From the IMG/VR virus record IMGVR_UViG_3300025646_005060, positions 9,853-73,852 of that record: DNA of 64,000 nucleotides. The stretch is one strand, 5' to 3'. Both the position numbers and the translations under genes were made by a program. Below, in pieces: positions 1 to 61,516 of the stretch (position 1 is the stretch's first letter; every line of letters starts with the position of its first letter). Under the pieces are notes generated by a model. That model saw nothing but the letters and a program-made list of their open reading frames with translations, did no database searches and had not been told where the DNA came from. This DNA is from a virus.

Positions 1-654
1 TCCAGTTCCATTCTTTATTTCATTATCAAGTCCTATAGAATGTAAAGAAAATTTATCATCTAAATAGTTTTTCAAATCATCCATAAAACATTGCCCATCA
101 TATATTTGATTGATTTTATTTTCAGACAATTGAACTTCCGCAAATATAGAAGAAACGTTATCTAAATTTGTTCCTTTCAGCACTTCAAGTTCTGCTCCTT
201 GAACATCTATACTTAGAAGATCTATATTTTCTTTTATTATATTTTCTAGTTTATCAGATTTTACTTTAATTTTAAATACAGACTTGAAAGAATAACCACT
301 ATTATTATTTTCTATAACTGGATAAATCGAATCAGATCCAGGTGAAGATGTTCTGTAAAAATAAATATCGCCTACGATATTGGATATGGCAATGTTGTGC
401 AGTTCGCATCTTGGATTCGATCCATATTTTTGTTTTATAATGTCAAAAAATTCAGAAACTGGTTCAAAAATATAAATTTTAGCATTTTTATACAATTGCA
501 AATAAATTTCTGCTTCCCAACAATGATATCCACCTACAATTGCTATCACGTTAATATCATCTTTTGATTTGTTGATATATAAATTAAAATTTGATTCGAT
601 ATCTCTTGATATAATATCGTATGCGTTGGATTCGTTGTAAATTATTGTTTTCAT
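1..654 (-). CDS. FkbM-family SAM-dependent methyltransferase (3' end runs off window)
   Basis: Manually translated: MKTIIYNESNAYD...IAIVGGYHCWE...IYIFEPV...LHNIAISN...DLLSIDVQGAELEVLKG. The FEP and IDVQGAE motifs are typical of FkbM. ATG at 654-652 overlaps the stop of the upstream ORF (ATGA). Confidence 0.8.
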   Translation of the reverse strand, partial: MKTIIYNESNAYDIISRDIESNFNLYINKSKDDINVIAIVGGYHCWEAEIYLQLYKNAKIYIFEPVSEFFDIIKQKYGSNPRCELHNIAISNIVGDIYFYRTSSPGSDSIYPVIENNNSGYSFKSVFKIKVKSDKLENIIKENIDLLSIDVQGAELEVLKGTNLDNVSSIFAEVQLSENKINQIYDGQCFMDDLKNYLDDKFSLHSIGLDNEIKNGTG

Positions 655-2186
655 TTTTGAGTCTCAGTTGTATTGGGGTCGAATAGGTAATGATACATTA
701 CTTTGTCTATATTAAAATTGTATTCGGATTTAATAAGTTTAGACTCTAATAATCTATCACAGTAATCTGCATCTTCTGCAAAGTTTTTCTCTGGGAATTT
801 AATTTGCCTAGCAAATTCAGTCCTTACTGGATTTAGATGATTGAGTGGTCTGTGTTGTTTTCCATCTTTCTTAAAATGCCCACCGTTGGCATTTGAATGA
901 TTAAACTCCATAACGGGGTTTCCAGAAACATAATATATTCCCCAAAATCCAACACCATCATATAAATCAGTATCAAGAACATTGAGTATTTCACTTAAAT
1001 ACCATTTTGAAACAATATCATCATCGTCTATAAAGCAAACATATTTTCCTTTTGCTTTATCTAATATTTCATTTCGTTTTGTGCCTACAGATTTTTCTTT
1101 GTTATCTTCGGAAATGACAATTTCTATTCTGTGTGAAAACGTTACAGGACAAGTTTTTTGTAATATGTTTAAAAGATTATTTAATTTTTCTTTTCTCTGT
1201 GGGAGTGTCAATATTCCTATGGTTAATAATATATCTTCTTTATTCATTTTATAATTTCTTTCAGTAGTTATTACTTCTTCTATGCGTCTGAAAAGATCTC
1301 TTCCATATTCTTTTGCTTTTTCATAATTTTTATCAATATATTTTTTCATTTTATCATATGTTTTTTCATTTATAGAATTAACTTTTTCTAAAAAATCTTC
1401 ATATGATTCGAATTGTATGATTCCTCTAATATCAAAAAAATCACCAATATTAGGACATCCCCAGTAAATTGGAACTGTTTTTGTTAATAAACAATCTATT
1501 AATTTTTCTGTAAAATAATTAACTTCAGAACTACTTTCAATTGCAATGCTAAACATTGAATTGTATAAATGAATTTTATCATCATTTGGAAGCAATCCAT
1601 CGTGCAATGTATTTGAAAATTTCCCATCATTTGTGGGGTATCGCGTGCTGCTGTAAAAAACTGTATTGTTTTCTATTAATTCTTTTTTATTCCAAATCAT
1701 ACATCTCAAATTATAACCAGTTTTGCCCAAATGAGAAGTTGTAAGAAATGATATATTATACTGTTTTGTGATATCACTTAATATCGATTCATCAAATACT
1801 CCAAGACTGTCATTATGTCTGGATTTATTTTTATTCAACCACGTTCCACCGTATGGTAAAAATTTAGCATTTGGTAAATTTAATAATACCTCTTCTTCGG
1901 TGCAAATTATTAAATCATATTGATATCCATTAAAAATAATATTTTTATTAGATTCTCTATTATATGATGAACTAGGTTCTGTATTACACACAAAAACTTT
2001 AAAAGAATTTTTATTTTCAAATTCAATAATCTTATCAACAATAGGTCTATGTAAATAATTAGTAACATATTTGTGATCAATGCAGGTTGCAGTGTTCCCA
2101 AATCTGGTGAAATGAATTTCACATGGAAACTCAAATTCCATTGGATCAAATCCAAAATAATCAGCATTATATACAGTTGCTTTCAT
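651..2186 (-). CDS. Two-domain glycosyltransferase: GT10 (fucosyltransferase-like) plus C-terminal GT2
   Basis: FSIAIESS...YFTEKLIDCLLTKTVPIYWG is the GT10 motif. The C-terminus has LTIGILT...KRNEILDKAKGKYVCFIDDDD and EDADY, typical of GT2/GT-A. Confidence 0.8.
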   Translation of the reverse strand: MKATVYNADYFGFDPMEFEFPCEIHFTRFGNTATCIDHKYVTNYLHRPIVDKIIEFENKNSFKVFVCNTEPSSSYNRESNKNIIFNGYQYDLIICTEEEVLLNLPNAKFLPYGGTWLNKNKSRHNDSLGVFDESILSDITKQYNISFLTTSHLGKTGYNLRCMIWNKKELIENNTVFYSSTRYPTNDGKFSNTLHDGLLPNDDKIHLYNSMFSIAIESSSEVNYFTEKLIDCLLTKTVPIYWGCPNIGDFFDIRGIIQFESYEDFLEKVNSINEKTYDKMKKYIDKNYEKAKEYGRDLFRRIEEVITTERNYKMNKEDILLTIGILTLPQRKEKLNNLLNILQKTCPVTFSHRIEIVISEDNKEKSVGTKRNEILDKAKGKYVCFIDDDDIVSKWYLSEILNVLDTDLYDGVGFWGIYYVSGNPVMEFNHSNANGGHFKKDGKQHRPLNHLNPVRTEFARQIKFPEKNFAEDADYCDRLLESKLIKSEYNFNIDKVMYHYLFDPNTTETQK

Positions 2187-2851
2187 TTCTTATTTCCCAC
2201 TAAATTATAATTAACAAGTTCTTCAGTCAGACCCATTTCGCGAAGACTCTTTTCCTTTGACTCTCCATCAGCAACACCAATTGTTATCATTGCCACGGTT
2301 CCATCTGGTGGTAAATTGCCAGGCCATATGGCATAGTTCTGACCAAGCATACCAATACGCATCTTTCCAAGATACTTTGGCATTACATAGTGCATCAAAA
2401 TTTCATGATCAAATACTTTAATTCCTTTTTCGGAATTTTCATGACCTTCGCAAGCATCAACCCATGTTTTCAAGAATTCAATGGCAATTGGTGTGTAGTT
2501 GATATAGATTGGCGATGCCTTCGGTGTGGTGGGTTTCACATGTGGTGGCATTCCATCATAGGCAAATGCCATGTCACATTTATCTTGCAAATCATCAAAT
2601 ACCTTCAACTCGGCATGAATGAGTGAATCTACGTCCAACCAGACGAATGGTTTCTTCTTATGCTCCAATGTCTTGAGAAGAAACTTTGGTTTTGCCAGAC
2701 AATTTAAACGATACTCACCACGCGATTTCATCTTCTTGATGTCGTGGGGTATATTATTCTCATTGCAATTAATACGCAACCGTGCTGCATGATCGCTATA
2801 GTAAGTGCGATTGTCTATGTCGCAATAAAAGGAAACGATTTCAGTCTTCAT
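2183..2851 (-). CDS. Putative nucleotide-diphospho-sugar transferase (GT-A fold, DxD)
   Basis: KPKFL...FVWLDVD (DxD) and later DHEIL. Sits between two GT10 genes. Confidence 0.6.
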   Translation of the reverse strand: MKTEIVSFYCDIDNRTYYSDHAARLRINCNENNIPHDIKKMKSRGEYRLNCLAKPKFLLKTLEHKKKPFVWLDVDSLIHAELKVFDDLQDKCDMAFAYDGMPPHVKPTTPKASPIYINYTPIAIEFLKTWVDACEGHENSEKGIKVFDHEILMHYVMPKYLGKMRIGMLGQNYAIWPGNLPPDGTVAMITIGVADGESKEKSLREMGLTEELVNYNLVGNKK

Positions 2852-4121: not shown

Positions 4122-4129
4122 TATTTATA
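4122..4129 (-). promoter_or_regulatory. T4-type late promoter TATAAATA upstream of regA
   Basis: Exact TATAAATA on the minus strand ~24 nt before the ATG. gp55 and gp33 are encoded in the window. Confidence 0.7.
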
Positions 4130-10142: not shown

Positions 10143-10880
10143 TTACTTATAGTCATCTGAGTTAGGATCTGGATTCCAATCAGTATACTTAGTACCGAAG
10201 TCTTCACGCTTCTTTTCGTCTCCAGTAAAGCGGTTTCGCTTTTTCACTTCATCAACCATATCTAAAAGAGTCTGGGGATCTAACATTCCCGATGTAATCA
10301 TATTCATGATTGCTTCAGCAGGAATATAGAGTTGCATCATAATCATATGACGATCCAATTCTGATTCGTCTACCATGTCAGGTGGAAGATAAGAGGACTT
10401 AGATTTTTTGTTTCTTCTCTTCTTTCTCTTTGGTTTTGGATAATCTTCTTCTGACATTTGTTCTAGTTCTTCCATTTCGGCAGATGCTTTATTGATGTCT
10501 TGAATAAGTTCGTCAATAAATGTACCAAAATCTTCTGCACTTGGTGCTTTCATGCTGATGTCTTCAGTCTCTTTGATTGATACGCTTCTTGAGTTCTCTG
10601 AAAACTCACGATTGCTTTCAATTTTATAAAGTTCAACTGTTGATTTATTTGGTTCACTCATGAGTGCAACGTGATTTGATGGAAGTACTGCTTCTTTATT
10701 ATCTGTATTCATCAACCAATCGTGTAGACTTGTTACATCAACCATGCGTCCCATTGGATCATATGTAGAAGAAGTTTTGAACAGCATTGGTTGAAAAATC
10801 TTGATATTCTCGTTGCCTTCTTCCAGAACTTGACATGCAATTTCTTCACCACTACGAAGTTTAAGAATCTTGATGTTCAT
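10143..10880 (-). CDS. Conserved T4-like hypothetical protein downstream of uvsW (Sm-like N-terminal domain)
   Basis: IKILKLRSGEEIACQV N-terminus; similar to ORF 63500-63811; usual position after uvsW. Confidence 0.6.
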   Translation of the reverse strand: MNIKILKLRSGEEIACQVLEEGNENIKIFQPMLFKTSSTYDPMGRMVDVTSLHDWLMNTDNKEAVLPSNHVALMSEPNKSTVELYKIESNREFSENSRSVSIKETEDISMKAPSAEDFGTFIDELIQDINKASAEMEELEQMSEEDYPKPKRKKRRNKKSKSSYLPPDMVDESELDRHMIMMQLYIPAEAIMNMITSGMLDPQTLLDMVDEVKKRNRFTGDEKKREDFGTKYTDWNPDPNSDDYK

Positions 10881-13382: not shown

Positions 13383-13390
13383 TATTTATA
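13383..13390 (-). promoter_or_regulatory. Late promoter TATAAATA upstream of gp3
   Basis: Exact motif immediately after the gp23 terminator. Confidence 0.7.
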
Positions 13391-13443: not shown

Positions 13444-14940
13444 TCACCAAGTTACGCCAGCGGCATTGCCGTGGAGGTTCTTGACTGCGAAGAGACGGTA
13501 GTATGCGTTGGTTGATGCCTCAAGACCATCACTGGTGTTGAGGTTGCTGAAGGTTGACTCACGACCACCTGCGAATGGATTGGCGACAAGACCGTAACGA
13601 GTCTTGAAACCAATCTTTGGTTGGAAGGTGTCTTGACCAACTGCACGGACCATTTGTAGAGGAACGTATGGGCAGTAGAAGAATCCTGCGTCGTATGGCG
13701 AGGTTCCCTTGTAACCAACGGTGATGAAGTTGATGTTGTTGGCAACAAATGGGTCAATGTAGACCTTGAACTTGTTGTTGAGAACACCTGCGAATACGTT
13801 ACCAGTGTCGTCAACTTGCATGTCAACGTTGAGTGCTGGCGAGAGGTTAAGGAATCCACCCATTGCGAGAGCACTTGCAACGTCTGCGGAGCAAACGATG
13901 AAGTTACCCTTTCCTCTACGAGTATCCTTAGCAATTTGGTTTGCTTCGCGTTCAATTTGGAACATAAGTCCGCGATAACGTTCTGCTGACCAACGACCGT
14001 CTGAGTCTGCGAGAAGGTCGTAGATACCACCATTGCCTGCTGCTGAGTAACCAGCGAGGTCGCGGTTGACTGCACCAGTCTTAGCAACGTAATACATTGC
14101 GCGAAGAATTTCGCGGTTGATTTCGTTCATGATTTCAACCGAAAGGATGTTGGCGAGTTCTGCCTCTGCGTCAAGACCGTGAACTGCGCGAAGGTCTTGT
14201 GCAAGTTCTGTGGTGTATTCTGCCTTGAGAGCGCGTGATCTTGCTTGTACTGCGACTCTTTCAATGCTGAATGCCATCTCACGGAAGTCACCTGACGATG
14301 AGTTCTTGCCGAGAGTTTCAGCAGTCGAGGTAAGCATACCGCGGAATGAAGTAAAGGTGTCTGGACGCGATTCAAGATATGTTTCACCTTCAGTATAAAG
14401 ACCAGTGAATGTACCAAGAGTGTGACCAGAAAGAAGGTCTGCATACGAAAGAGTTCCGCCTGCGCCACCAAGTCTGGTTGCACCAGAAGCACCAGAAACT
14501 TTTGCCCATGGTTCGTCAAAGAGTGCTTCGTCACCTTGAGTGTAACCATTGTTGTCGTTTCCGTAACGAGCGCGCATTGCAAAGATAAGACCAGTTGGAG
14601 CACTCATTGGTTGAACGCCTGCGATGTCGTATGCTACGACGTTTGGCATTGCGCGACGAACGAGTGAGATAAGAACTGGATCGTAACCAGCAAAGTTACC
14701 TGCTAAACCGACTTGACCAGTGATGAAGTTGCCACCGACACCGATTGGGCCCATGGTATCTTCAAAGAGATTTCCTGCTCTCTCTTCTTTCATTGCCTTG
14801 ACTTGGTTCTCAAGAAGAACTGCGGTTACGCGCTTCTTGTGAAGATCGCCAATGCTTGGAAGATCGCCGTGCTCAAGTACTGGGGACCACTTCTCTACGA
14901 GTGAATCATATGGGGTTGTGTTGTTAAAATCTACTGACAT
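13444..14940 (-). CDS. gp23: Major capsid protein (gp23)
   Basis: LVEKWSPVLEH, LISLVRRAMP, GVQPMSAPTGLIFAMR, SRALKAEYTTELAQDL, FYCPYVPLQM, FQPKIGFKTRYG. Confidence 0.99.
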   Translation of the reverse strand: MSVDFNNTTPYDSLVEKWSPVLEHGDLPSIGDLHKKRVTAVLLENQVKAMKEERAGNLFEDTMGPIGVGGNFITGQVGLAGNFAGYDPVLISLVRRAMPNVVAYDIAGVQPMSAPTGLIFAMRARYGNDNNGYTQGDEALFDEPWAKVSGASGATRLGGAGGTLSYADLLSGHTLGTFTGLYTEGETYLESRPDTFTSFRGMLTSTAETLGKNSSSGDFREMAFSIERVAVQARSRALKAEYTTELAQDLRAVHGLDAEAELANILSVEIMNEINREILRAMYYVAKTGAVNRDLAGYSAAGNGGIYDLLADSDGRWSAERYRGLMFQIEREANQIAKDTRRGKGNFIVCSADVASALAMGGFLNLSPALNVDMQVDDTGNVFAGVLNNKFKVYIDPFVANNINFITVGYKGTSPYDAGFFYCPYVPLQMVRAVGQDTFQPKIGFKTRYGLVANPFAGGRESTFSNLNTSDGLEASTNAYYRLFAVKNLHGNAAGVTW

Positions 14941-17971: not shown

Positions 17972-19546
17972 TTATTGAGGTGGTTGTCCTTGTTCGTCTA
18001 CCAGACCCAATTGCTGCATTTCTATTTGCTGCTGTATTTGTTTCTGACGATCCACTTCCATTTCTTCATCCATACGAGCAATTTCTTCTTCAGACTGCTT
18101 AAGAATATTCTTTCTCACATACTTGGCAGAGAAGAACATTCCAGTATATTGACCAATCGTGTTAAGCATGTTGATTCGTTCGGCAAGAATCTCGTTCTCT
18201 TTTAGATCGTTGAAATATGAATCTTTGCTATAGACAATCTTCATGTCCTGATAATGATCTTTCCAGTCATCAGGAGTCAAGATTCCTTTTAGAATTGACT
18301 GCTTCTTGAGCATGTCCAGGAACATAAAAGAGAACTTATTCTGAAGTCTTTCAATGAACTTGTAGAACTTCACTTCGTCTCTGGTTATTTCACTGCTTCT
18401 GCCTAGATTGAATCCAGTCTGAACTTCCATTCGTGTAAGTGGAACATTAAGTGCTCTGTATACCTTACGGAGTAAATATTCAACGTCTTCCATTTCGCTG
18501 AGTCCTTGACCACCTGGAAGTGTTTGAATCTCAGTTCCTCTTCCACCCTCTCTACGAGGCAACCAGTAATCTTCAAGCATGGAGAAATGGTTTCTCTGGT
18601 CTTTAATTTCTCCACTTGATGAATCGTATGTGAGTTTATTACGATAACGATTCATGAGTGACTTCATGTATTCTTCTGCTTTGTTCTTTGGAAGATTTCC
18701 AACGTCAACGTAGAATACTCTTCGTTCTGGAGCACGGGCAATGCGGTATACGACCATTGCGTCTTCTGTCTGACGCAACATGTTGAGTGGACGAATTGCC
18801 TTGTGTAAATGTCCTACGACTCTCTTTGTGGTCTGATCAAGATATCCAGAGTGACAATATGTGATTGAGTCTGGAGCAATCTTAACACCAGCAGAACTTG
18901 TGGTTGGTATGTTGCTTGCCTCAAAATCTGTAAAGACAAAGTATTCATCTACTTTACTGACAATAGGAATTGCTGTATTGTTTACACGCTTGACTTGCTT
19001 TTGAACCTTACGAATCTTACGAATCTTAATTGGATCAATTGCCCGAATTTCTTGTATTCCTTTTTCTGGATGATCAGTATCAATAATTAACTGGTAGTAG
19101 ACTCTTCCATCTACATACCAGCGCCTAAAGATATCGTATCCTCTGCTAGAAAAGTCTAGCAATTTAAGAATATTGTTGAATTCGATTTGAAGTTTTGCCT
19201 TAACATTGTCTGAAAGATCAACATTATCAAGATTTAGTTTGACAGCAGAATTCTGATTGTCAAAGCATATTGCCTGAGTAACAATATCTTCAATTGCCAT
19301 GTCAACCTCTGGATAGAGAGACATGCTACGATATTGCTTGATAAGAGAATTTTCATCAAGAAACGATCCACCAAAGTCATAAACGGAGGACATAAATCCT
19401 CCTGATTCTATGACTTGAGTTCCATCATAATTTTCTGGAGCGACAAAGGAAGCATTGGAGGAACTGTCTCCAGTTAATCCTCCAATGAATTCCTTATCGT
19501 CCTTTGCTTTCCCAAAGGAAAACCCAAAATAATCAGTCCACGACAT
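17972..19546 (-). CDS. gp20: Portal protein (gp20)
   Basis: FRRWYVDGR, YRIARAPERRVFYVDVGNLP, EDYWLPRREGGRGTEI. Confidence 0.99.
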   Translation of the reverse strand: MSWTDYFGFSFGKAKDDKEFIGGLTGDSSSNASFVAPENYDGTQVIESGGFMSSVYDFGGSFLDENSLIKQYRSMSLYPEVDMAIEDIVTQAICFDNQNSAVKLNLDNVDLSDNVKAKLQIEFNNILKLLDFSSRGYDIFRRWYVDGRVYYQLIIDTDHPEKGIQEIRAIDPIKIRKIRKVQKQVKRVNNTAIPIVSKVDEYFVFTDFEASNIPTTSSAGVKIAPDSITYCHSGYLDQTTKRVVGHLHKAIRPLNMLRQTEDAMVVYRIARAPERRVFYVDVGNLPKNKAEEYMKSLMNRYRNKLTYDSSSGEIKDQRNHFSMLEDYWLPRREGGRGTEIQTLPGGQGLSEMEDVEYLLRKVYRALNVPLTRMEVQTGFNLGRSSEITRDEVKFYKFIERLQNKFSFMFLDMLKKQSILKGILTPDDWKDHYQDMKIVYSKDSYFNDLKENEILAERINMLNTIGQYTGMFFSAKYVRKNILKQSEEEIARMDEEMEVDRQKQIQQQIEMQQLGLVDEQGQPPQ

Positions 19547-44785: not shown

Positions 44786-45949
44786 TTATGGTGGCAATAT
44801 TATTGTACATTCGGATCCACTGTTTGGAGATCCCAACTCTGCGGGATAACACATTTCAATTAAAGTACTAATATTTATGTCAAACAATGTATTTGTGGTA
44901 TATTGTCCATTCCAATTTGGGAATAGATGAGTAGGACCAGAAAATCCAGTATTACCGTTTACGCAATATGCCTGATAATTCAATCCGATAAAAGTAAACC
45001 CTTGCGCTGCTGCTTCAGCAGTCCACCCATCGGCAATGTAAAGATTGCTGGTAGATGAAGAATAATCGTTTCCTATGACATATCCAGAATAATTTCTCAG
45101 TATGGGAAGTTCACATACTGTTGGATTATCTTCGTCAAACAATGGTCCTTGGTAATCCGAAAGAAGATGCTCATATACGATCTTAAGACCAGCAGGATGC
45201 ATTATGTCTTTATAGATTTGCTTATATGAATTTACATCCACTCCAGTCTTGATGAGATATGACCAATCCTGAATCCAGTTTCCATCCTGCATTCTGGATC
45301 CATTCAAGTGACTTCCACTCAAATCATTGGTGATGTCGTAATCTCCAGTTCTACCTATTGGAAATGAATAGACCGAATCTGGAAAGCGACCACCGTTCAG
45401 ACGTAAAATGTTTTTCTTTGGAACATCAATTCCTATATTTTCCTCAGATACACCAAATAATTTTATGAAAAAGTAACGAATTGCGTCTTCTGTTGTTTTC
45501 TTCTGATGAATTGCTCTTCGTATTCCGTTGAGAAACTTTCTAAGATTTTCTTCGGAAACAGCACCACCATTAGATTTCAGTGCCTCTGGAACGAATCCAT
45601 TGGCATAAGTATCTGCCAGTCTCTCTAAAAACTGACTTCTGGTTCTGTCTATGTCAATCAGATCTAAAAAGTCTTGACTCAATTCATATTGAGCACCGCT
45701 TTCATTGTCACAGTACAACCAGTCATAATACTTCTGTAGAAAGTCAAATACGTTGACACCAGACAATCCATCTTCTTCTCTTGATTTCTTTTCCTGAACG
45801 ATCCAAAGAGGTATTTGACTTGTTATGTCATAATTTGTAGGACAAGATCTTCCAAATAACAAAGAAGTCAATTCATCAATAGTAGTGCTTAACTCTGCTA
45901 ATTGATTTCTTGGTGTTTCTGTTTGAGTGTTGACTACGGAAGGTATCAT
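44786..45949 (-). CDS. gp7: Baseplate wedge initiator (gp7-like, short)
   Basis: FLQKYYDWL, KKTTEDAIRYFF..LFG, MQDG..IQDWSY.IK, MHPAGLK; lies between gp6 and gp8. Confidence 0.7.
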   Translation of the reverse strand: MIPSVVNTQTETPRNQLAELSTTIDELTSLLFGRSCPTNYDITSQIPLWIVQEKKSREEDGLSGVNVFDFLQKYYDWLYCDNESGAQYELSQDFLDLIDIDRTRSQFLERLADTYANGFVPEALKSNGGAVSEENLRKFLNGIRRAIHQKKTTEDAIRYFFIKLFGVSEENIGIDVPKKNILRLNGGRFPDSVYSFPIGRTGDYDITNDLSGSHLNGSRMQDGNWIQDWSYLIKTGVDVNSYKQIYKDIMHPAGLKIVYEHLLSDYQGPLFDEDNPTVCELPILRNYSGYVIGNDYSSSTSNLYIADGWTAEAAAQGFTFIGLNYQAYCVNGNTGFSGPTHLFPNWNGQYTTNTLFDINISTLIEMCYPAELGSPNSGSECTIILPP

Positions 45950-48097: not shown

Positions 48098-51000
48098 TTA
48101 GGTTAAAACAAATGGTTTGACTGGAGATGTTATATCGTTTGGATCAAAATAATTAGAGTCTCTTACTAGGGTGAGAATCATGTAATATGTTCTCGGAGTC
48201 GCGAACATGTGTTGGATTCCCGAAACCATCCAAGTTCCAGAAATTGCCTTATATTGATCTTGCGTATATAAAGGAGCATCATTTTCATTGATGACCGATA
48301 CCAAAGATCCAACATTGACAACCGAATTTGAAGTGACTTTAATTCTGATTTGCTGAGAACTCAACTGAGCAGAATGGGCATTTCTCATGAGTGGAACTTC
48401 ATAAGGTGTTTCCCAGAAAGTCGCATATGTTCTGGTATATGCCAGATATTCATTGAACTTCTCTCCCCACTCTGGACAATTACAACTACATGTAGATTCT
48501 GGATCAGAATACTCACAACCAAGATATTCCTCCCCAAGAACTTCTTCAATCATCGCACATTCATTGATTTCCTTTTCCAGTCTGTACAGTTCCAAATATG
48601 TTGGTTCTGTTTCTGTTGGTTTTACGTTCTGTGCTGGACAGTTACAGTAGTAGTTCGTATTTGGACAACCATCGGAATTTACAATAACTTGATTTGGATT
48701 TGCACAGGAAAGACCTAAATCGTTACATGTACGAAGTCTTGACTTGGCAAATACCACAAATTGTGCTGCAAAGTTACGATCAAAGAATTCGTACTCTGTA
48801 TCCACTGGTGGAGTGATCAATCCATATTCAGTCTCACCACTGAGATCATATTTCCAGAGATCTGTCGCAACCAATCCTGGTCTGTAAAGATTGTAATTTC
48901 CAGCGATATAATTCATCAGAGATTCGTGGAAATAACCTTGTAAGTCGGTTGTGTACGGAGAAATGGAATCTCCATCTTTGCCTTCAATAAAGAATGTAAG
49001 GTCTGGAGCACTGTTTTCCATCAATGCCTTTGTTGTTGGATTGTTGTCCAAGGTCAACCAGGTTTCAAATTCACTTCCATACCAAGTTCTCCAGTAATTT
49101 GGATTGATTGTGAATATTGCCTTGCCACCAAACAAGTCTCTTGCCTTGGTATTTGGAGTCTTGAACATATTCGCAAAACGAATTGGTATGAATAGATTTC
49201 TTGGCACAAACAACGACCACCACGAACGGTGTGGTTTTAACTTACGATAACTGTTTGGAAGAATATAAGATCCTACAACTGACGTTCTATAAAGTGGATC
49301 AAATTGCTTGCCAGAAGAAACCCCGTAGTGGTATAGAGATTCCATCCAGTCTTGAGACTCATTCTCAAAGTAGTATCCACCACCCATGTGGAAATCTAGA
49401 TCATACCCTCCACCATGAAGATCTTCTTGTGCTGGATCGTATGCGTAATATGGATAATCAGTTTCAAATCCAGGTTCAGGCCAAAGATCCATGCCATTGT
49501 AATCTGGTGTTAGATAATCTGCCTTTGACAAAACAGATCCAGTATCGTGATTCCACCAGTTGTAATAATTGCCCTTGTTAATGCCTTGTAATTTGCGATT
49601 GCTTGGAAGATCATCCTTGATCTTCTTTACGGCAACATCAAATCCGTAAGGATCCATTCCAATGACGGCAATATTGTACTTGACACCTTGTCTTCCGAAT
49701 GGACCAGGAGTTACATTCACAAGATATGGCAAGAAGTATTCAATACCAGCATCACGGATGAACGCATTTGGGAAATCCTTAATTGTATCAAGACCGATGG
49801 GCGTATTGAATTCAATTCTGACATAAGAAGAGATTTCTTCCTTCTTGACATTTGCTGGTTTCCTTCCAGTCACATCATAGAAGTTGTAAGTGTCTTTAAA
49901 ATCAGTAAGAGTTCCAGAAAGATCCGATTGTGCCTGTCCATACGAACTATTCAGCAATCTGCTTGCTGGAACTATGTTGTTTGGATTGTGAGAATACAAA
50001 TCAATATGAGCAACACCAGGAACTACTGCTTCATTTCCAGAATACGATGGATAATAATTTCCAGCATTTGCCGTAAATGAAGTATTATCAATAAAGAATG
50101 TAAAGTCATCTGTTCCATCTGCGTCAGTTCTTCCGAACCAAACATGAGGAGATCTTGATGTCACAAATGGTTGAGAATTATACCCCTGATCGTAGTATGG
50201 ATGTGCTGTAGAACCAGCATCTCCTCCGAAGAATATTTCATACAACCACTCTCCCGCAGAAGCACCAGTGATTCCTACCTTGTTTGATAAGAGTTCGTAT
50301 CTACTTCCACGAATTTCTTTTCTTGTTATTTTCTTTACATTCTGAAGAGAAAGAGGTGAATTTATACCAGAAACACCTGTTTGTTCGTTTCTGAATATCG
50401 AAGCACCTGGATTCTTCGAGAAGAAGAAAGCATTTCTCTGATACCACTCTTGATAAGAAGTGTTCCAAGAATTGATAAATTTGCTTGCTATTTCTGATTT
50501 GAGTTTTTCTGTTAATTCAAACTCTACAAGCAACAATTGTTTTTCAACTACTACTGTTCTTCTTAGAGTTTCCAGAGAAACGGGACTGAGACATGTCGTG
50601 TTGTAGCATTGTACATTTTCTAAACATTCTTTGGTCGTGTTTCTAATTTCTTCGTCGGTGATTGCTGGTATCAATCCAGATTCTGATCCATAATCAAAGA
50701 ACGACCAATCCTTGACACCATCATCCCAAAGATATGGAGCAGCGTAATCATATATAGGAGAATACTCAGATGCTGCTTGTCGGTTGATGTGTTTGATGTA
50801 TCCACGAACAACTGGATCGTTTGAGCATTGTGCCAGTAGATTGGGATTTACATAAACCACATCTTCGTCTGTTGGCAATCCAGATGGTCCTGTGGGTCCA
50901 GTTGGTCCTGTGGGTCCAGTTGGTCCAGTTGGACCAGGAGTTCCAGGAACGATTATAACGGTTACGTCGTCATCTACTATACACTCTGAACAATTTTCAA

Positions 51001-53884
51001 CTACAGATCCTAGGAAATCTTGAGTTCCACAAAATCCATTTGGAAGAGGAACACAAACACTCACACCAAATGCCGCAACACTTAAGCAGCAATTTTCAAC
51101 TCCGTCGTCTGGAGTTCCTGGATCGTATGTACATTGTTCTGGATCTTCAATGCTATAACCACGAGCTGGATTTTCTGCTGCCAATGCCGCACATTCTGGA
51201 ATTGGAATAAATGCTGGATAGCTTGGATCTCCTGCTTGTGCTCCACGAATACAACACCATGTACAGTTTTCTGGGTTGGTGTCACAATCGTAACTTTCAC
51301 ATGTCAGGAATCCATTATCATCAATACAAGATGTTCCTGGTCCTTGCCATTGTCCACCAGAACATCCTGCTTCTATTTCTATGCTGCAATTTCCAAAATT
51401 ACCAAATGTACCTTCGCGACAACATGCTCCACCCGCACATGCGTCTTCTGACCATGCTTGTGCGATACTCGCACCTGGTCCAAATGAATAATATCCCTGA
51501 CATCCATACGAATTGTTAGCCCAGTCTGGTGGGTATTGTGGAAGATCATTATATGGTAAATTTCCATTAACTATAGCACCATAATAAGAACATGAACCTT
51601 CTAATATATACGATTCATTCGGATTACCTGTACAATATTGACAACATCCCTCACCGCCTGCAAAATTGGAAAATCTATAGGTGAGTTGATTTCCATTTGG
51701 ATCTTCTCCAAAAACAACAACACCCAATCCTTTGTTTATAGGAATGGCAGTATATGGGACAAGACCGTATTCTTGTTCAGATATAGGCCACTGTCTGGTT
51801 TCGCTTCCAATGAATGGTCCTAGATTTTCTCCTGGGAAAGAATCTCCGACATATCTAAATCCTTGAGAAAGATCAACTGGTCTATAAGAATCCGACTGTT
51901 TGTCAATAGTTGCTTTATCTAGGATCTGTATGGCATTGAATTTATATTGATTTACATTTCCCAAAAATAGATCAATATCATTAATTCTTTTGCTGATCTT
52001 TTGAAGGAGTATATTATAGAGATTTAAAGATCTTTGTAGTGCGTATTTTTTATATGCTGCTGGTGCTTCTGGTCCAACTATATTGAAGAACTGACCAATT
52101 GTTTCATTGTATGGTGCTTTTGTAAGATCATACGAGTATGTTAGACCATACTGATTTGCAGTATTGCCTGGATCGTAGTTGATTAGATCTGTGAAAGATC
52201 CAGCAGCAACGATCTTATATTCGTCTTCTTTGATTGATCCATAGATGCCAGTTGCTCCAAAGAGTGCCTGATATGTAATGCCATCAATTGGTCCTGGGTT
52301 TTCCAGAATTTCTAAATCTTCCTTGGAACCAAGAGGTCCATCGGCATGACAGCAGACGGTACATCTATACGTTTCCCATTTTCGTTTGATGTCTTTTTTC
52401 TCTGCGTATTCTTGTCTTTTCGCTTTAAGTGGAACACGAATCTCTTTGTGTATCTTTTCAAATGTAGAGAATGTAAGGTCTGTCAAATCAAATTGAGGTT
52501 GCCATGCCTTCCTCGACCAAGGAGAACTTGCTCTGTGGTTATATACTTCCCACTTGACTGGATGTGGATTGTTGAGTACTTTTTCGCTAAAGTATCCATA
52601 TATCTCATCATCTACTTTTGAATTCTGTTTGGCAGTTGTGAGTTCGTTGAATGGTGAAGTATCAATATCATCCGAAACTAGTTTATTCTTCTCAATATGC
52701 TCTATTCTGGAGTAATCTCTATGATAATCATAGGTTACGGTTTTCTTGATAAAGCAATCATCGCTACTTGTGAAGTCAATGTAAGGATTAGTATAGTCTG
52801 GATCAATTCTCTCATAATAAGAAAACAAACCACCAGAATCATACAACCACTGAATATTATTTTGACTCAACACTTCGTAGTTGTGAATTCTCTTTGGATT
52901 GTTTTGATCAATCGTAATTAAGAATGTATCGTCAAGTTCTGAATTCTTTTCCTTTAAGATCTTGGAAAGAGATCTGAAGTTCCATCCGTTTCTATCGTGC
53001 CAGCAGTAATAATCTGCATACAGAGTAGGAGCATACAAGTCAAGAACATCAACAAATGACAATACTCCAAGAGGATGTCCATTTGTTCCAGTGCCATCCC
53101 AGGCATACTTTGAGATATAATTGAGCATTTGAGTGATTCTCATTTGCCCTTTTCTCTTCATCCAGGGGTAAGAGACATGATCGTGCTTCAACCATATGCC
53201 ATTCTTGGCAGAGTCAATCTTTCCAATTGGCAATTTATAATATTCAAAAAGAACATTTATAAGTCCAACTTCAGATTCGCCAAACACAAACTCACTTATA
53301 CTTTGTATTGCTGTAGAAATTAATCCCTGATTTCCTTCTTGATCTGTTGCTATTTTTCCAACAAAGTCTTCATTGTCATTGAGAAATGATGTTGTATAGT
53401 TTGGAAGAAATATTTCAGAACTAATGAGATCCAACTTCCAAAGACTATATCTCTCATCCAATGTGGTATAGTCAGTTTGCTTTGCTTCGTTTGTTATATT
53501 TTTTGCAGCATGGATATGAAATCTAAATTCGGTGACATCTTCCGAATCACCAATTTTTACCTTTAAGACTAAAGTGTCTTTTCCATTTAATTTAATTTCA
53601 TTAGTCCAGTTTCTAACATCATACAACACTACAGAACCAGTCATCGGTCCAACAAACAAAGATTCCTCAAATGTCATGGAAACTAAAGGAGAATCTGTAT
53701 ATACTTCAGATTCCCAAGGAATTATTGTGAAGGATGTGTTAAAAAAGAATGAAGATCCAGATTCAATGTATAGTTCTTGAATTCTTGATTCTGCTGGACT
53801 GATTGGATTTGGCAAATCTGGTGTAGGAGTGAAATAATCAGAAATTGCCTGTCCAAGTAATGATGCTAAAGAAAATATAGACAT
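48098..53884 (-). CDS. Giant baseplate hub protein (gp27-like ends) with internal Cys-rich and collagen insertions
   Basis: N-terminal FEESLF..PMTGSVVL.D and FRSLSKI; C-terminal ISGTWMVSGIQH.F.....MILTLVRDS typical of T4-like hub proteins; lies between gp53 and gp25. Confidence 0.6.
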   Translation of the reverse strand: MSIFSLASLLGQAISDYFTPTPDLPNPISPAESRIQELYIESGSSFFFNTSFTIIPWESEVYTDSPLVSMTFEESLFVGPMTGSVVLYDVRNWTNEIKLNGKDTLVLKVKIGDSEDVTEFRFHIHAAKNITNEAKQTDYTTLDERYSLWKLDLISSEIFLPNYTTSFLNDNEDFVGKIATDQEGNQGLISTAIQSISEFVFGESEVGLINVLFEYYKLPIGKIDSAKNGIWLKHDHVSYPWMKRKGQMRITQMLNYISKYAWDGTGTNGHPLGVLSFVDVLDLYAPTLYADYYCWHDRNGWNFRSLSKILKEKNSELDDTFLITIDQNNPKRIHNYEVLSQNNIQWLYDSGGLFSYYERIDPDYTNPYIDFTSSDDCFIKKTVTYDYHRDYSRIEHIEKNKLVSDDIDTSPFNELTTAKQNSKVDDEIYGYFSEKVLNNPHPVKWEVYNHRASSPWSRKAWQPQFDLTDLTFSTFEKIHKEIRVPLKAKRQEYAEKKDIKRKWETYRCTVCCHADGPLGSKEDLEILENPGPIDGITYQALFGATGIYGSIKEDEYKIVAAGSFTDLINYDPGNTANQYGLTYSYDLTKAPYNETIGQFFNIVGPEAPAAYKKYALQRSLNLYNILLQKISKRINDIDLFLGNVNQYKFNAIQILDKATIDKQSDSYRPVDLSQGFRYVGDSFPGENLGPFIGSETRQWPISEQEYGLVPYTAIPINKGLGVVVFGEDPNGNQLTYRFSNFAGGEGCCQYCTGNPNESYILEGSCSYYGAIVNGNLPYNDLPQYPPDWANNSYGCQGYYSFGPGASIAQAWSEDACAGGACCREGTFGNFGNCSIEIEAGCSGGQWQGPGTSCIDDNGFLTCESYDCDTNPENCTWCCIRGAQAGDPSYPAFIPIPECAALAAENPARGYSIEDPEQCTYDPGTPDDGVENCCLSVAAFGVSVCVPLPNGFCGTQDFLGSVVENCSECIVDDDVTVIIVPGTPGPTGPTGPTGPTGPTGPSGLPTDEDVVYVNPNLLAQCSNDPVVRGYIKHINRQAASEYSPIYDYAAPYLWDDGVKDWSFFDYGSESGLIPAITDEEIRNTTKECLENVQCYNTTCLSPVSLETLRRTVVVEKQLLLVEFELTEKLKSEIASKFINSWNTSYQEWYQRNAFFFSKNPGASIFRNEQTGVSGINSPLSLQNVKKITRKEIRGSRYELLSNKVGITGASAGEWLYEIFFGGDAGSTAHPYYDQGYNSQPFVTSRSPHVWFGRTDADGTDDFTFFIDNTSFTANAGNYYPSYSGNEAVVPGVAHIDLYSHNPNNIVPASRLLNSSYGQAQSDLSGTLTDFKDTYNFYDVTGRKPANVKKEEISSYVRIEFNTPIGLDTIKDFPNAFIRDAGIEYFLPYLVNVTPGPFGRQGVKYNIAVIGMDPYGFDVAVKKIKDDLPSNRKLQGINKGNYYNWWNHDTGSVLSKADYLTPDYNGMDLWPEPGFETDYPYYAYDPAQEDLHGGGYDLDFHMGGGYYFENESQDWMESLYHYGVSSGKQFDPLYRTSVVGSYILPNSYRKLKPHRSWWSLFVPRNLFIPIRFANMFKTPNTKARDLFGGKAIFTINPNYWRTWYGSEFETWLTLDNNPTTKALMENSAPDLTFFIEGKDGDSISPYTTDLQGYFHESLMNYIAGNYNLYRPGLVATDLWKYDLSGETEYGLITPPVDTEYEFFDRNFAAQFVVFAKSRLRTCNDLGLSCANPNQVIVNSDGCPNTNYYCNCPAQNVKPTETEPTYLELYRLEKEINECAMIEEVLGEEYLGCEYSDPESTCSCNCPEWGEKFNEYLAYTRTYATFWETPYEVPLMRNAHSAQLSSQQIRIKVTSNSVVNVGSLVSVINENDAPLYTQDQYKAISGTWMVSGIQHMFATPRTYYMILTLVRDSNYFDPNDITSPVKPFVLT
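50881..50948. repeat. Collagen-like (GPT)n repeat inside the giant hub gene
   Basis: ggtcctgtgggtccagtt tandem units; protein PGTPGPTGPTGPTGPTGPTGPSG. Confidence 0.9.
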
Positions 53885-53886
53885 AA

Positions 53887-54852
53887 TTAAACTAGTACCT
53901 TAAATGATCTACCTATCTGATTTGTTTCCAATGCCGTCTGAATAGTCGCCATTACACTATTTAGATAATCTGCCTTGAGTACTTTGATCTTTTGACTTTC
54001 AAATCTGGAAACGACTAATTCTTCGCTTAGATATTTGTATCGTATATTTGTCGTAGTTGGCGATCCATCATTTGTCACATAATCATAAAGAACAGTATCC
54101 GAGAAGTTGGAGGTAACTGCATCAGTTGGATCTGTATATGTTTCAGATGGATCTAAAGAGTTTATAGTCAGTGTACTCAATGATACGATTCTGTACGGAG
54201 ACACTTCAATTTTACCAGCATCTGTTCCCGCAGTAGAAATATAAAAATAAGAAAGACTATTGAGATATGTTTCAGTGTGAAGCACTTCCGCGTAATCTGT
54301 GTCCTGTGGTGTCGATCCAGTGCTTCCGAATGTAATTGGTGTTATCTCTCCGTTAGGAAGTTTTCTGGCAAATGCCACAAGATCTCCAGTACTGATTTCT
54401 CCAGCACCAGATATTCCTCTTATTTTTCTTAAATTCTTATCAAAACTGACAATTTGACGATAATGATCAACATCAACACTGGTAGTAGTCAGATCACTTG
54501 TACCATCTACCTTTATGATGATATCTCCTTCTTGTATGTCTGGCAGATTAGCAATATAGTACGCATCTCCTCCATAATCTCTCTGAAGAGATGCTTCGTA
54601 TTTCTGAGCAGTTGGATACCATTCATTATTGATATCCGCAAAGTTATTACACATCATGACCAACCATGAAAACCCAGGAACACCATAAAACTTAAAAGAA
54701 ACCGATTCTGGTGTCTCTCCCTCTTGTACAAAATAGTCTTCAAACGCATTTCCAGAAACATCTTGAATGGAAATATTTCTAAAAATATCCAATATGGTAA
54801 CTTGTTTACCATTAAGATTGTAAGGAATTGTTTCTAAATTGCTGAATAGCAT
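53887..54852 (-). CDS. gp53: Baseplate wedge subunit (gp53, LysM-like)
   Basis: DIFRN, Y.VQEGETPESVS.KFYG....WLVMMCN...N.EWY, KIKVLK. Confidence 0.88.
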   Translation of the reverse strand: MLFSNLETIPYNLNGKQVTILDIFRNISIQDVSGNAFEDYFVQEGETPESVSFKFYGVPGFSWLVMMCNNFADINNEWYPTAQKYEASLQRDYGGDAYYIANLPDIQEGDIIIKVDGTSDLTTTSVDVDHYRQIVSFDKNLRKIRGISGAGEISTGDLVAFARKLPNGEITPITFGSTGSTPQDTDYAEVLHTETYLNSLSYFYISTAGTDAGKIEVSPYRIVSLSTLTINSLDPSETYTDPTDAVTSNFSDTVLYDYVTNDGSPTTTNIRYKYLSEELVVSRFESQKIKVLKADYLNSVMATIQTALETNQIGRSFKVLV

Positions 54853-58991: not shown

Positions 58992-59882
58992 TCAGTCTTC
59001 AGCAAGTCGCTGAAAGTAACTGAGTGCATCGGATTCATCTTCAACATCATCTTCAACTGGTTTCTTTTGCTTGAGAGTAGGCTTCTTTTCCACCAGTTCT
59101 TCTGCGATGTCTTCAGCAGTCTTCTGATTTGTAGGAGCACCACCACGAATATCTCCACCAAGAACCTCTTGCATTCTTGCCTTCAGTTCTTCATACGACT
59201 TGAAGTTTGAAGAATCAAGGAATGGAAGAAGAGCATGTTGCGACTTCCAGATTCGTTCGAGTTGAGCATCATCTCCAGAGAGAGGAGTCATTGAATCAAA
59301 CTTTGATGCGTCGTAGTTGGTGTAACCACCAACCTTGCGAATCTTGATGCGGAAGTTAGCACCCTTCCAGAAATCAAACGGATTGACTGGTTCCTCGTCT
59401 TGGAACTCAGGCTTCATGACCTCCTGAATCTTCTCAAAGATCTTGGTTCCGTATTTATAGAGAAAGACCTTACCTTCGTTTTGAGGATTCGCAGGATCCG
59501 AAACAACGTAGATGTTAGAGATGTAAGTGAGTTTACGCTTACGAACACGGGCAAGATCCTTATCTGACTCTAGACCTGAATTCCAGAGCATGTTATTGAG
59601 TTCACCAACTGGATCCTTCTGACCAAGAGTCGTGAGAGAATTCTCAATGTACCAACCACCTGGTCCCTGAAACGCATGATTGTATACCTTTACCCAAGGT
59701 ACGTCTTCCCCGTCAACTGGAGGAAGAAAACGAATGATCGCAAATCCGTTTCCTGACTTATCCTGCTCTGGACGCCAGAAACGATCATCCTTGTAGTCCT
59801 TTGCCTTTGTCTGATCATCCATCTTCTTGATGAGATCTTCAATTCCTGCTTTGGACTTCTTCTTAAGATCGCTAAAACCCAT
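58992..59882 (-). CDS. gp32: Single-stranded DNA-binding protein (gp32); start MGFSDLKK at 59882
   Basis: DDRFWRP..DKSGNG.AIIRFLP, HAFQGPGGWYIENSLTTLG..DPV, KRKL.Y.SNI, GKVFLYKYG.KI, acidic tail. Confidence 0.98.
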   Translation of the reverse strand: MGFSDLKKKSKAGIEDLIKKMDDQTKAKDYKDDRFWRPEQDKSGNGFAIIRFLPPVDGEDVPWVKVYNHAFQGPGGWYIENSLTTLGQKDPVGELNNMLWNSGLESDKDLARVRKRKLTYISNIYVVSDPANPQNEGKVFLYKYGTKIFEKIQEVMKPEFQDEEPVNPFDFWKGANFRIKIRKVGGYTNYDASKFDSMTPLSGDDAQLERIWKSQHALLPFLDSSNFKSYEELKARMQEVLGGDIRGGAPTNQKTAEDIAEELVEKKPTLKQKKPVEDDVEDESDALSYFQRLAED

Positions 59883-59896
59883 ACTGCCTACTTTCC

Positions 59897-59943
59897 CCAA
59901 GGATCTCCCTTGGACTTTTACTTGACGGTGGGAACTCCCCACC
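59897..59943 (-). promoter_or_regulatory. Twin stem-loops in the gp32 5' leader (candidate translational operator)
   Basis: GGTGGG-GAGTT-CCCACC and CCAAGG-GAGAT-CCTTGG. Confidence 0.6.
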
Positions 59944-59948
59944 CCTGA

Positions 59949-60201: not shown

Positions 60202-60207
60202 AAACTC

Positions 60208-60235
60208 ATTATACCATGGTTATAAACACTGTCAA
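60208..60235 (-). promoter_or_regulatory. Sigma70-type promoter TTGACA-N16-TATAAT for gp33 (leaderless)
   Basis: Consensus hexamers; ATG 6 nt downstream of the -10. Confidence 0.75.
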
Positions 60236-60271
60236 TCTCTACACTATATATAAGAATAAAGGGAATAATAT

Positions 60272-61516
60272 ATGCCATATACTGCCGACAACATTGAAAT
60301 CACAATAGCATCTGGAACTGCTATTCTTGCCACTGATTATGGTACAAGTGGAACTGGATTTAGTCTTGCTCATGCTCAGATCGCAAAGGTTTCTTGGGGT
60401 GACGATAGCACCACATATAGAGCAAGTGAGACATATCCATTCCCTGTAAAGATATACGGCATCACTGGCACTACGATTCCCATCAGTGGAACGATTTCTG
60501 GTACTGGTGATTTCTATGTTCGCACAAATCCAACCATTCCTTTGATCGTAAAGGGTTCTACTTTCTCTACAGATGCTCCTGTTGGAATTACTGGATCAAT
60601 TCAAGGCATCTCTGGTGGTCAGGCCGTCGCAGTCTCTGGATCAGTTTCTGTCACCAATAATGTAGGCGTCTATGGAATCAGTGGAGCAACCGCAATTGCT
60701 ATTACTGGTGGAAGACATTTAGATTCGTCCACCGATAGTGTTTATGTTTATGGTGACGTAGGAATTAGTGGTGGATTCCAATTAGTTGCTGCTGATGATT
60801 CTGTTTCTGTATATGGTCCTGGTGGATCAACGTACATTGAAGCGAATCTTAATGTAGCAGGAACTCCTCTTGGAATATCTGGAGACGCACTCAAGGTAGC
60901 AGTCACAAATGCTGGATTTACTTTCTCGGTTTCACTTTCATCAACAGTTGGAGTGACCAACGACGCAGCAGATAATGCTCTAAGGGTTCAAGGTCTTTCT
61001 GGTGGAACACCAGTCACTATTCAAGGAAGTCTCGCAGGAGGTGCTGTAGAAATTGGAGCATATACTGCGGTTCCCGTTGGTGTCTCTGGAACAGTTTCAA
61101 TTGATGATACGGATATCATTGATGAGATTGAATCACTCAAGACCAACATCGGAACTGTTGCGACAAATGCAGGATATGCGCTTGATATTCTTAACCTCAT
61201 CAACACAGGTGGTGATGGAGCAAGAGTAATTGTAAATTCTATCGCAAGAGCAAATAGAATTTCACATTCTCAAGTCACAGTCACTTCAAATACTTCCATT
61301 CTTGGAAATCAAACAGGTCTGAAATCTGGTGTTACAATCAAATCATTGGCAACAAACACGACTGACATTTACGTCGGAAATTCACTCGCATTGACAACGA
61401 CCAATGGTTATGTCTTGAGTCCTGGCGAAACTCTATTCCTTGAAGTCAGTACTCTTGGATCTATATTTGTTAGAACATCTGCGGGATCAGCAACTCTAGC
61501 ATATATCGCAACATGA
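60272..61516 (+). CDS. Gly/Ser/Thr-rich putative virion fibre or decoration protein
   Basis: Repeated V.V.G.[TS]G beta-type motifs, short coiled coil, C-terminal GVTIK....N...IYVG......GY.L.PGE domain; TATATATA late-like motif upstream. Confidence 0.55.
   Translation: MPYTADNIEITIASGTAILATDYGTSGTGFSLAHAQIAKVSWGDDSTTYRASETYPFPVKIYGITGTTIPISGTISGTGDFYVRTNPTIPLIVKGSTFSTDAPVGITGSIQGISGGQAVAVSGSVSVTNNVGVYGISGATAIAITGGRHLDSSTDSVYVYGDVGISGGFQLVAADDSVSVYGPGGSTYIEANLNVAGTPLGISGDALKVAVTNAGFTFSVSLSSTVGVTNDAADNALRVQGLSGGTPVTIQGSLAGGAVEIGAYTAVPVGVSGTVSIDDTDIIDEIESLKTNIGTVATNAGYALDILNLINTGGDGARVIVNSIARANRISHSQVTVTSNTSILGNQTGLKSGVTIKSLATNTTDIYVGNSLALTTTNGYVLSPGETLFLEVSTLGSIFVRTSAGSATLAYIAT

Follow-up and report, generated by a model that had tools for sequence, protein, structure and literature searches.

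A GT2-TPR glycosyltransferase linked to Thr-rich collagen-like genes in an uncultured T4-like phage: a candidate system for O-glycosylation of virion fibres

Analysed here is a 64,000-nucleotide stretch of viral DNA (IMG/VR record IMGVR_UViG_3300025646_005060), called the window throughout, which makes up bases 9853-73852 of a 73,852-bp viral contig (64 kb of 73.9 kb). Its subject is a glycosyltransferase that joins a GT2 domain to TPR repeats (the GT2-TPR enzyme), the Thr-rich collagen-like genes linked to it and the G-x-T-G motif in virion proteins. Judged by PHROGs and Pfam gene identities, the source of the contig is an uncultured T4-like myovirus. Replication and regulation genes in the window comprise regA, gp62, gp44, gp45, gp46, gp47, gp55, UvsW and UvsY, and those for head, neck and tail are gp3, gp23, gp22, gp21, gp20, gp19, gp18, gp17, gp16, gp15, gp14 and gp13. 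A baseplate set (gp8-, gp7-, gp6-, gp25- and gp53-like proteins and a 1928-aa tail protein) is also present, as are three giant fibre-like proteins, gp4, a tube-like protein, gp26 and gp32. The enzyme itself is encoded outside the window; positions below are those of the window unless the contig is named:

Contig G000:C1 1814-3046, minus strand: 410-aa GT2+TPR glycosyltransferase, 6.8 kb upstream of the window
13444-14940: gp23
58992-59942: gp32 (PHROGs/Pfam)

The N-terminal part of the enzyme is a GT-A/GT2 domain with a DxD motif (Pfam PF00535, E 2.5e-13). The C-terminal part is a TPR domain, to which TPR families match at aa 184-240, each under its own cut-off; the assignment also comes from a profile that matches TPR proteins and the TPR domain of OGT. 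A single-sequence search of the PDB gives GmaR, SunS and ThuS as the best matches, and a profile built from 32 homologues returns the same three (6e-26, 2e-22 and 3e-17, respectively), with the next glycosyltransferase at 7e-7. An AlphaFold2 model (predicted local distance difference test score 93.5) contains a Rossmann-like fold at residues 1-170 and ten helices at 179-384, and a Foldseek search with the full-length model places SunS and ThuS on top (E 3e-16). In the alignment of the 32 homologues, from which the L138 homologue was left out for its stop codon, the aspartates of nucleotide binding and of the DxD motif are conserved: D38, T39, G40, S41, D43, D92 and A93 do not vary, and D94 is kept in at least 90% of the sequences. 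No transmembrane segment was found in the enzyme. GmaR, SunS and ThuS all glycosylate proteins or peptides. Sequence and model together place the phage enzyme in the same type of GT-A plus TPR family, and it is predicted to be a protein or peptide glycosyltransferase. Listeria GmaR (a flagellin O-linked N-acetylglucosamine, or O-GlcNAc, transferase) and SunS/ThuS (glycosin S-/O-glycosyltransferases, which match the whole fold) are its closest solved relatives, although identity in the structure alignments is just 13-17% and they act on Ser/Thr of flagellin or on a Cys in a peptide loop instead of on collagen repeats.

Metagenomes contain thousands of homologues of the enzyme (up to 91% identity), whereas only 9 of 50,697 cultured-phage records contain one and none of these is a cultured cyano- or pelagiphage. 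Within IMG/VR the enzyme marks a T4-like clade with the gene order gp46 - small open reading frame (ORF) - gp45 - gp44 - gp62 - regA - enzyme, and in this contig and in locus L003 the junction between regA and the enzyme carries a sugar cassette. The enzyme gene is linked to Thr-rich collagen-like genes in phages, giant viruses and bacteria. In the subclade of this phage, the enzyme gene is followed at once by ORFs for collagen-like proteins, which have 28-136 triplets and Thr or Ser at 53-84% of their Y positions; a collagen-like gene immediately adjoins the enzyme in L003, L006-L012, L028, L051 and G027, and in the case of G027 the G-x-T arrays begin ~1 kb past the enzyme gene. Among bacterial and archaeal loci with a homologue, 26 of 49 have a collagen-like run within 6 kb. 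Several of these cellular runs are 90-99% Thr/Ser, and the longest has 177 triplets. The (GxT)5 matches listed for three genomes (5.6-7.5 Mb) are essentially all next to the enzyme gene, with 24 of 25 in one genome. The search can also be turned around: when 80 viral stretches were picked solely by a (GxT)6 array, five had, among the matches listed, a full-length homologue of the enzyme within a few kb, and two of the five are giant-virus contigs. Six of eight enzyme-bearing T4-like contigs have (GxT)4 arrays, compared with one of 11 complete phages that lack the enzyme (Fisher p 0.006). Further relatives were sought with gp20; a single-protein search gave 12 loci, and an alignment-based search added only G026 and G027, most of its contigs being too short for presence of the enzyme to be judged.

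Collagen-like sequence is also found in the proteins of this phage. The protein at contig 3-575 (Pfam Collagen, E 1.2e-18) is encoded by a (GPT)n repeat gene truncated by the left end of the contig. Uninterrupted runs in the phage have 8-32 triplets, mostly GPT/GxT, with Thr dominant at y. Within the window they are placed as follows:

31183-31281, minus strand: 11-triplet collagen-like run GPSGPIGPTGNSGETGNPGETGNTG... at the N-terminus of a 1024-aa fibre (28243-31317)
34290-34379, minus strand: 10-triplet collagen-like run GPTGFTGNTGPTGATGSTGNDGSTGPTGAS at the N-terminus of a 1043-aa fibre (31314-34445)
38654-38752, minus strand: 11-triplet collagen-like run at the N-terminus of a 1452-aa fibre (34442-38800)
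50873-50944, minus strand: 8-triplet (GPT)n run at aa 981-1004 of the 1928-aa tail/baseplate protein (48098-53884)

The 1043-aa fibre has PHROG tail-fibre matches at aa 19-85, and the C-terminus of the 1928-aa protein matches phrog_350, a tail protein. As a separate observation, the 1024-aa fibre holds two poly-glycine runs, GCDGDGGGGGGGGGGGTDGDD and GGGGGGGGGGGGGEE, mid-protein (29131-29247).

A second feature of the locus is a set of sugar genes. The GT10, GT2 and FkbM genes at the left end of the window are the end of a ~12-kb sugar island that spans regA to the GT2-TPR enzyme and continues upstream of the window:

1-654, minus strand: FkbM-family methyltransferase (PF05050, E 4e-12, 47 bits against a cut-off of 22.7; no transmembrane segment); the ORF begins 23 nt before the window
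651-2186, minus strand: 511-aa fusion of GT10-like and GT2 domains (PF00852, 26.1 bits against a cut-off of 23.9, aa 209-272; PF00535, 36.8 bits, aa 339-442)
2183-2851, minus strand: 222-aa island protein with no family assigned (no Pfam or NCBIfam match); a homologue with 68% identity lies at the same place in L003
2841-3677, minus strand: 278-aa GT10-like glycosyltransferase (PF00852, 30 bits against 23.9)

A preliminary description of the window, made from its letters, had named two GT10 domains, a GT2, an FkbM methyltransferase and a DxD transferase. Pfam recovers all but the last, which corresponds to the 222-aa protein without a family. Both GT10 matches pass the Pfam cut-off narrowly (26.1 and 30.0 against 23.9) and span profile positions 34-125 of 182; the 278-aa protein has homologues of 34-41% identity in S-SM2, S-T4, Sf-CH8, S-SSM7 and others. 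Upstream of the window (L001), the island encodes a weakly matching FkbM-like protein, an SDR epimerase/reductase, a CmcI-like methyltransferase (weak match), a DUF7796 protein, a sugar-1-phosphate nucleotidyltransferase, a HAD phosphatase, WavE and a DUF6165 protein. The best NCBIfam match of the SDR enzyme is GDP-fucose synthase, at 118 bits far under the cut-off of 500, and the contig contains no Gmd gene. Pfam searches at E up to 0.5 returned nothing for the 222-aa island ORF, a 408-aa ORF next to the enzyme or the repeat protein ORF60272 described below. Membrane segments are absent from all 15 island proteins, which are soluble; family searches and a transmembrane scan found no exporter, flippase, polymerase, ABC exporter or priming transferase in the island. 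Host machinery could stand in for these missing export functions. Among relatives (IMG/VR loci L003-L056), the cassette between regA and the GT2-TPR gene ranges from nothing to >10 kb of different sugar genes, and the slot behaves as swappable.

The promoter-like motifs at this locus are of the T4 late type. The preliminary description had placed late-promoter-like motifs before the sugar genes at 4122 and 3697; the former is an exact match and the latter is no late-promoter match:

4122-4129, minus strand: T4-type late-promoter motif TATAAATA (exact), 23 nt upstream of regA, with the sugar genes following on the same strand

No terminator-like site was found between regA and the glycosyltransferase genes. 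The same motif, TATAAATA, precedes gp3, gp22 and gp13, and it also occurs 94 nt upstream of the enzyme gene and just ahead (8 nt) of the next ORF. In nine relatives with an island, NATAAATA lies 30-78 nt upstream of the enzyme, and exact matches occur at ~5x the background rate. At two places, 13383-13390 in the window and 1806-1813 in L001, TATAAATA is just 6-8 nt ahead of the called starts of gp3 and the 408-aa ORF, a spacing that suggests either very short leaders or miscalled starts.

The preliminary description had also proposed that G-x-[ST], recurring in the virion proteins, is a glycosylation sequon. All of the peptides it quoted are present in the translations: SGASGAT, GGTL, SGHTLGT and AGVTW in gp23; AGSTA, AGISA and GGTAGVSG in gp18; SGVTG and KGVSG in gp14; YGTTG and VGYTG in gp15; GGLTG in gp20; FGSTG in gp53; and GNTGFSG in the gp7-like protein. 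Per 100 aa, G-x-[ST] occurs 1.36 times in core virion proteins, 2.4 times in fibres, 5.1 times in ORF60272 and 0.5-0.7 times in replication and sugar enzymes. This gap, in which virion proteins have 2-4x the density of enzymes, is mostly a matter of Gly/Ser/Thr composition, and in the fibres the density owes much to the collagen-like (G-x-y)n runs. Per-protein composition shuffles leave no conserved virion protein significant for G-x-[ST] (for instance, 9 against 6.7 in gp23 and 8 against 5.9 in gp18), the counts in gp23, gp18 and gp14 equal those of relatives, T4 included, and GxS and GxT take places 35 and 109 when all 850 residue pairs are scanned without bias. Pooled over 25 virion proteins with collagen runs masked, the motif is found 205 times against 162.8 expected (1.26x), compared with 50 against 46.4 in non-virion proteins.

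The excess is found in a longer motif. Without a following G or A, G-x-[ST] is at expectation (142 against 146), whereas the virion proteins of the window contain 28 G-x-T-[GA] against 11.3 expected and 17 G-x-T-G against 6.5 (2.6x). Both excesses persist under a 15-residue local shuffle, and reversed or shifted versions of the motifs stay at ~1.0. Enrichment over a composition-shuffled null thus holds for what the preliminary description had put as "often G-x-T-G/A", and the three-residue motif is close to composition. Sites in the window include:

24683-24694, minus strand: neck protein gp14 (24383-25306), GVTG in its C-terminal extension; five of eight GT2-TPR-bearing contigs have a G-x-T-G at this column
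23673-23729, minus strand: gp15 (23619-24383), GTTG and GYTG in its C-terminal tail; the second is at a column found in five of eight GT2-TPR-bearing contigs and in none of ten comparators
19469-19480, minus strand: GLTG near the N-terminus of portal protein gp20 (17972-19546)
20935-21255, minus strand: sheath protein gp18 (20146-21378), GSTA at aa 42 and GGTA at aa 145, both within its variable N-terminal part
44945-45355, minus strand: GRTG and GNTG(FSG) in the gp7-like baseplate protein (44786-45949)
54316-54327, minus strand: GSTG in gp53 (53887-54852)
60272-61516, plus strand: ORF60272, a 414-aa Gly/Ser/Thr-rich repeat protein with G-[IVL]-[ST]-G every ~20-30 aa

In the case of ORF60272, which is probably a fibre-like protein and matches no family, G-x-[ST]-[GA] occurs 10 times against 3.1 expected, and this density reflects the sequence repeat. 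The sheath protein gp18 is itself unusual in size, with just 410 aa here and ~403 aa in G004 as against 600-800 aa in other T4-like phages; its outer domains therefore seem to be missing.

Whether the motif accompanies the enzyme can be seen by comparing eight virion proteins (gp23, gp18, gp14, gp15, gp20, gp13, gp3 and gp19) between eight enzyme-bearing contigs and ten phages without the enzyme (S-T4, S-SSM7, P-HM2, syn9, Mosig, T4, Melnitz, S-PRM1, S-BM3 and S-SKS1). In the enzyme-bearing contigs, G-x-T-G occurs 43 times against 9.2 expected from a global and 13.8 from a local shuffle, an excess of 3-4.7x, and the reversed and shifted controls are ~1. In the ten other phages it occurs 22 times against 14.2 and 21.7, respectively. 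Non-structural proteins of both sets have G-x-T-G at background level. G-x-S-G is enriched ~1.8-2x in both sets, and in non-structural proteins as well, and is thus generic; Ser, part of the sequon as first proposed, drops out. Per phage, the G-x-T-[GA] ratio is 2.6-6.6 with the enzyme and 0-2.9 without it. There are 6-13 G-x-T-[GA] sites per phage in the eight proteins. The motif sites occupy 28 alignment columns, 21 of them singletons, and cluster in gp23 columns 174-227 and where gp18 is variable; gp3 and gp19, which form the inner tube, have none. The singleton columns indicate repeated gains. At gp23 column 134 the pattern is the opposite: GPTG is conserved in nine of the ten phages without the enzyme, and all eight enzyme-bearing contigs, this one included, have A/SPTG, perhaps because the motif is avoided at a constrained position. 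The earlier expectation that the motif would co-occur with glycosyltransferases across related phages is borne out for the GT2-TPR clade only, and there for G-x-T-G. It fails for the GT10 genes, since GT10-bearing S-SSM7, S-T4 and S-SM2 lack G-x-T arrays and the first two have no G-x-T-[GA] excess.

The closest parallel to this arrangement is found in spores. In C. difficile, SgtA (a GT-A domain followed by TPRs) attaches O-GlcNAc to Thr of the GPT repeats in BclA3, a collagen-like glycoprotein of the exosporium, and its gene lies directly upstream of bclA3 (PMC7157674). Likened by that published description, the phage enzyme has the same order of GT-A domain and TPR repeats at a similar size (410 aa, 358 in SgtA), a gene beside a Thr-rich GPT collagen-like gene, a G-x-T-G acceptor context that is putative for the phage, and further sugars capping the first one, which are likewise proposed. 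There are differences: the phage infects an aquatic host and not a spore former, its presumed substrates are virion fibres, and one ORF lies between enzyme and collagen gene, with a 12-kb sugar cassette attached. An enzyme of the type that glycosylates collagen Gly-x-Thr thus stands beside the phage's own Thr-rich collagen-like fibre genes, and the fibres are therefore probably sugar-coated. We put at about even the chances of the full proposal, drawn from sequence and from this analogy, that the phage encodes an SgtA-BclA3-like system which O-glycosylates the Thr-rich collagen-like segments of its fibres, with the island supplying and tailoring the sugars. Late in infection and in the cytoplasm, the enzyme would attach the first sugar to a Thr within G-x-T-G, chiefly in the Thr-rich collagen-like segments of the fibre proteins, and the ~12-kb island would supply activated sugars and then extend and methylate the glycan. 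We infer the acceptor, the sugar and the timing in this scheme, as well as any benefit, which could be fibre stability, masking or adhesion. Isolated G-x-T-G on capsid, sheath, neck, baseplate and fibre shafts may serve as secondary acceptors. Of the glycosylation system first proposed, what stands is a plausible phage machinery for protein glycosylation with Gly-x-Thr as the likely acceptor, to which the GT2-TPR family, the collagen linkage, the SgtA-BclA3 precedent and the G-x-T-G excess confined to the enzyme clade all point; the broad G-x-[ST] sequon is not supported.

Viruses that decorate their own particles have precedents. Giant viruses and chloroviruses have fibrils or capsids glycosylated by virus-encoded enzymes, and mycobacteriophages reportedly glycosylate their virions with enzymes of their own, as Freeman et al. 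are said to have described in 2023 (cited in PMC12801897). The likeness to the system proposed here is that virus-encoded enzymes act on the virus's own particle proteins; the enzymes and acceptor sites are unrelated. We know of no report of a collagen G-x-T context for mycobacteriophages. Two giant-virus contigs in the present set do pair a GT2-TPR homologue with G-x-T arrays.

Several observations weigh against the proposed fibre glycosylation or against the motif as its sign. At the locus, the unassigned 408-aa ORF parts the enzyme from the (GPT)n collagen-repeat gene; in another T4-like subclade the enzyme directly follows regA with no collagen gene within 10 kb; and (GxT)4 arrays are missing from one enzyme-bearing jumbo contig of 88% completeness. 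As for the motif, the eight core proteins of this window contain only four G-x-T-G, and Melnitz, S-PRM1 and syn9, all without the enzyme, reach G-x-T-[GA] ratios of 2-2.9. The enzyme-bearing T4-like contigs are one clade, so the association with G-x-T-G rests on one origin and on turnover within the clade, and the Mann-Whitney p of 1.6e-4 for the association comes from a statistic that ignores kinship. Lastly, WavE and GT10-like genes are typical of lipopolysaccharide (LPS) or capsule pathways, and such islands are read as host-surface modifiers in the literature (PMC7029224, PMC12801897).

How far the modification would reach over the particle can be answered in two ways. In the first, which we hold as a tentative extension, a Thr sequon serves the whole virion: the SgtA-like enzyme would O-glycosylate G-x-T-G wherever it is exposed, on collagen fibres, capsid insertion loops, outer domains of the sheath, neck and baseplate. 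Selection would have sown the motif over the outside of the particle and cleared it from a buried, conserved position in gp23, and swappable cassettes would give serotype-like glycan coats. In the second, which seems to us possible to a like degree though we would not favour it, the GT2-TPR enzyme modifies just the collagen-like G-x-T repeats, and the G-x-T-G excess elsewhere is a structural habit of the clade without relation to glycosylation, for example turn motifs in the variable outer domains. The linkage of the enzyme gene to collagen-like genes and not to capsid genes favours this restriction to fibres, as do the few isolated sites per phage (6-13), the ratios of 2-2.9 in some phages without the enzyme, and the identity of x, which is often V, I, Y or F as in beta-strand or turn motifs; the motif in ORF60272 is moreover part of a sequence repeat. 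A structural habit accounts less well for an excess that is Thr-specific, directional and persistent under local shuffling, for the turnover of sites among close relatives (the 21 singleton columns), and for the gp23 site at which GPTG, present in nine of ten enzyme-lacking phages, is A/SPTG in eight of eight enzyme-bearing contigs.

An alternative that we consider unlikely, though deserving of weight, is that the island, with or without the GT2-TPR enzyme, remodels the host surface by altering LPS, capsule or a surface protein, for example to block superinfection, and that G-x-[ST] reflects composition plus collagen periodicity. Host-surface remodelling is how islands of this kind are customarily interpreted in cyano- and pelagimyophages (PMC7029224, PMC12801897), whose T4-like genomes likewise carry variable cassettes of nucleoside diphosphate-sugar enzymes, glycosyltransferases and methyltransferases; the present phage shares GT10 homologues with S-SM2, S-T4 and S-SSM7. 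WavE, the GT10-like domains, the SDR epimerase and the nucleotidyltransferase are LPS-type enzymes, S-SM2 has a comparable island away from structural genes, and the three-residue motif is indeed near composition. Those marine phages, however, lack both the GT2-TPR enzyme and (GxT)n arrays. The island here is without flippase, polymerase, ABC exporter, priming transferase or any membrane protein; the nearest solved relatives of the enzyme act on proteins or peptides, its gene is linked to collagen-like genes across life, and late-promoter motifs stand ahead of the enzyme and the fibre-like ORF. Host-surface remodelling would also leave the clade-specific G-x-T-G excess unexplained. For the island's other enzymes alone, such a role is conceivable, with a similarly low probability.

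Much less credible is the broad form of the original idea, in which any G-x-[ST] on any virion protein is a sequon served by the window's GT10, GT2 and FkbM genes. Those genes are real and the pooled motif is in excess in virion proteins (205 against 162.8) more than in others (50 against 46.4), but the excess vanishes without the following G or A (142 against 146), G-x-S-G is enriched to the same extent in phages that lack the enzyme, their non-structural proteins included, the gp23, gp18 and gp14 counts match those of relatives including T4, and GT10-bearing S-SSM7 and S-T4 show no G-x-T-[GA] excess. That the glycosyltransferases act on phage DNA, as the T4 glucosyltransferases do and as has been suggested for those of cyanophages (PMC12801897), is highly improbable, given that no similarity to the T4 alpha- or beta-glucosyltransferases was seen, that the contig has no hydroxymethylase and that the TPR domain and collagen linkage suggest a protein substrate.

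No published description of such a phage enzyme-collagen system was found in the searchable literature. If glycosylation of the fibres by the GT2-TPR enzyme is true, widespread uncultured aquatic T4-like phages sugar-coat their own fibres, and perhaps the whole particle, by means of a short acceptor motif and exchangeable cassettes. The reading of "LPS-type auxiliary genes" in phage genomes would then change, and SgtA-BclA3 chemistry would extend from spores to viruses as a simple enzyme-motif pair open to testing. Glycans on collagen-like fibres could, in that case, affect adsorption, stability, grazing or particle recognition.

Some further features of the window can be added. Its gp23 is only ~55% identical to that of any cultured phage and is at the same distance from cyanophages, pelagiphages and Methylophilales phages. 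A 190-aa ORF (26157-26729, start MGCGCNKNKNKN) with no family match lies between gp13 and the fibres; its homologues sit between gp46 and gp45 in ~27 related viral contigs. The ORFs at 10143-10880 and 63500-63811 are alike at the N-terminus (MNIKILKLRSGEEI... and MAVKIVRLMSGEEI...); the first matches DUF6561, and the second has homologues in ten related contigs, 6-7 kb downstream of the GT2-TPR gene.

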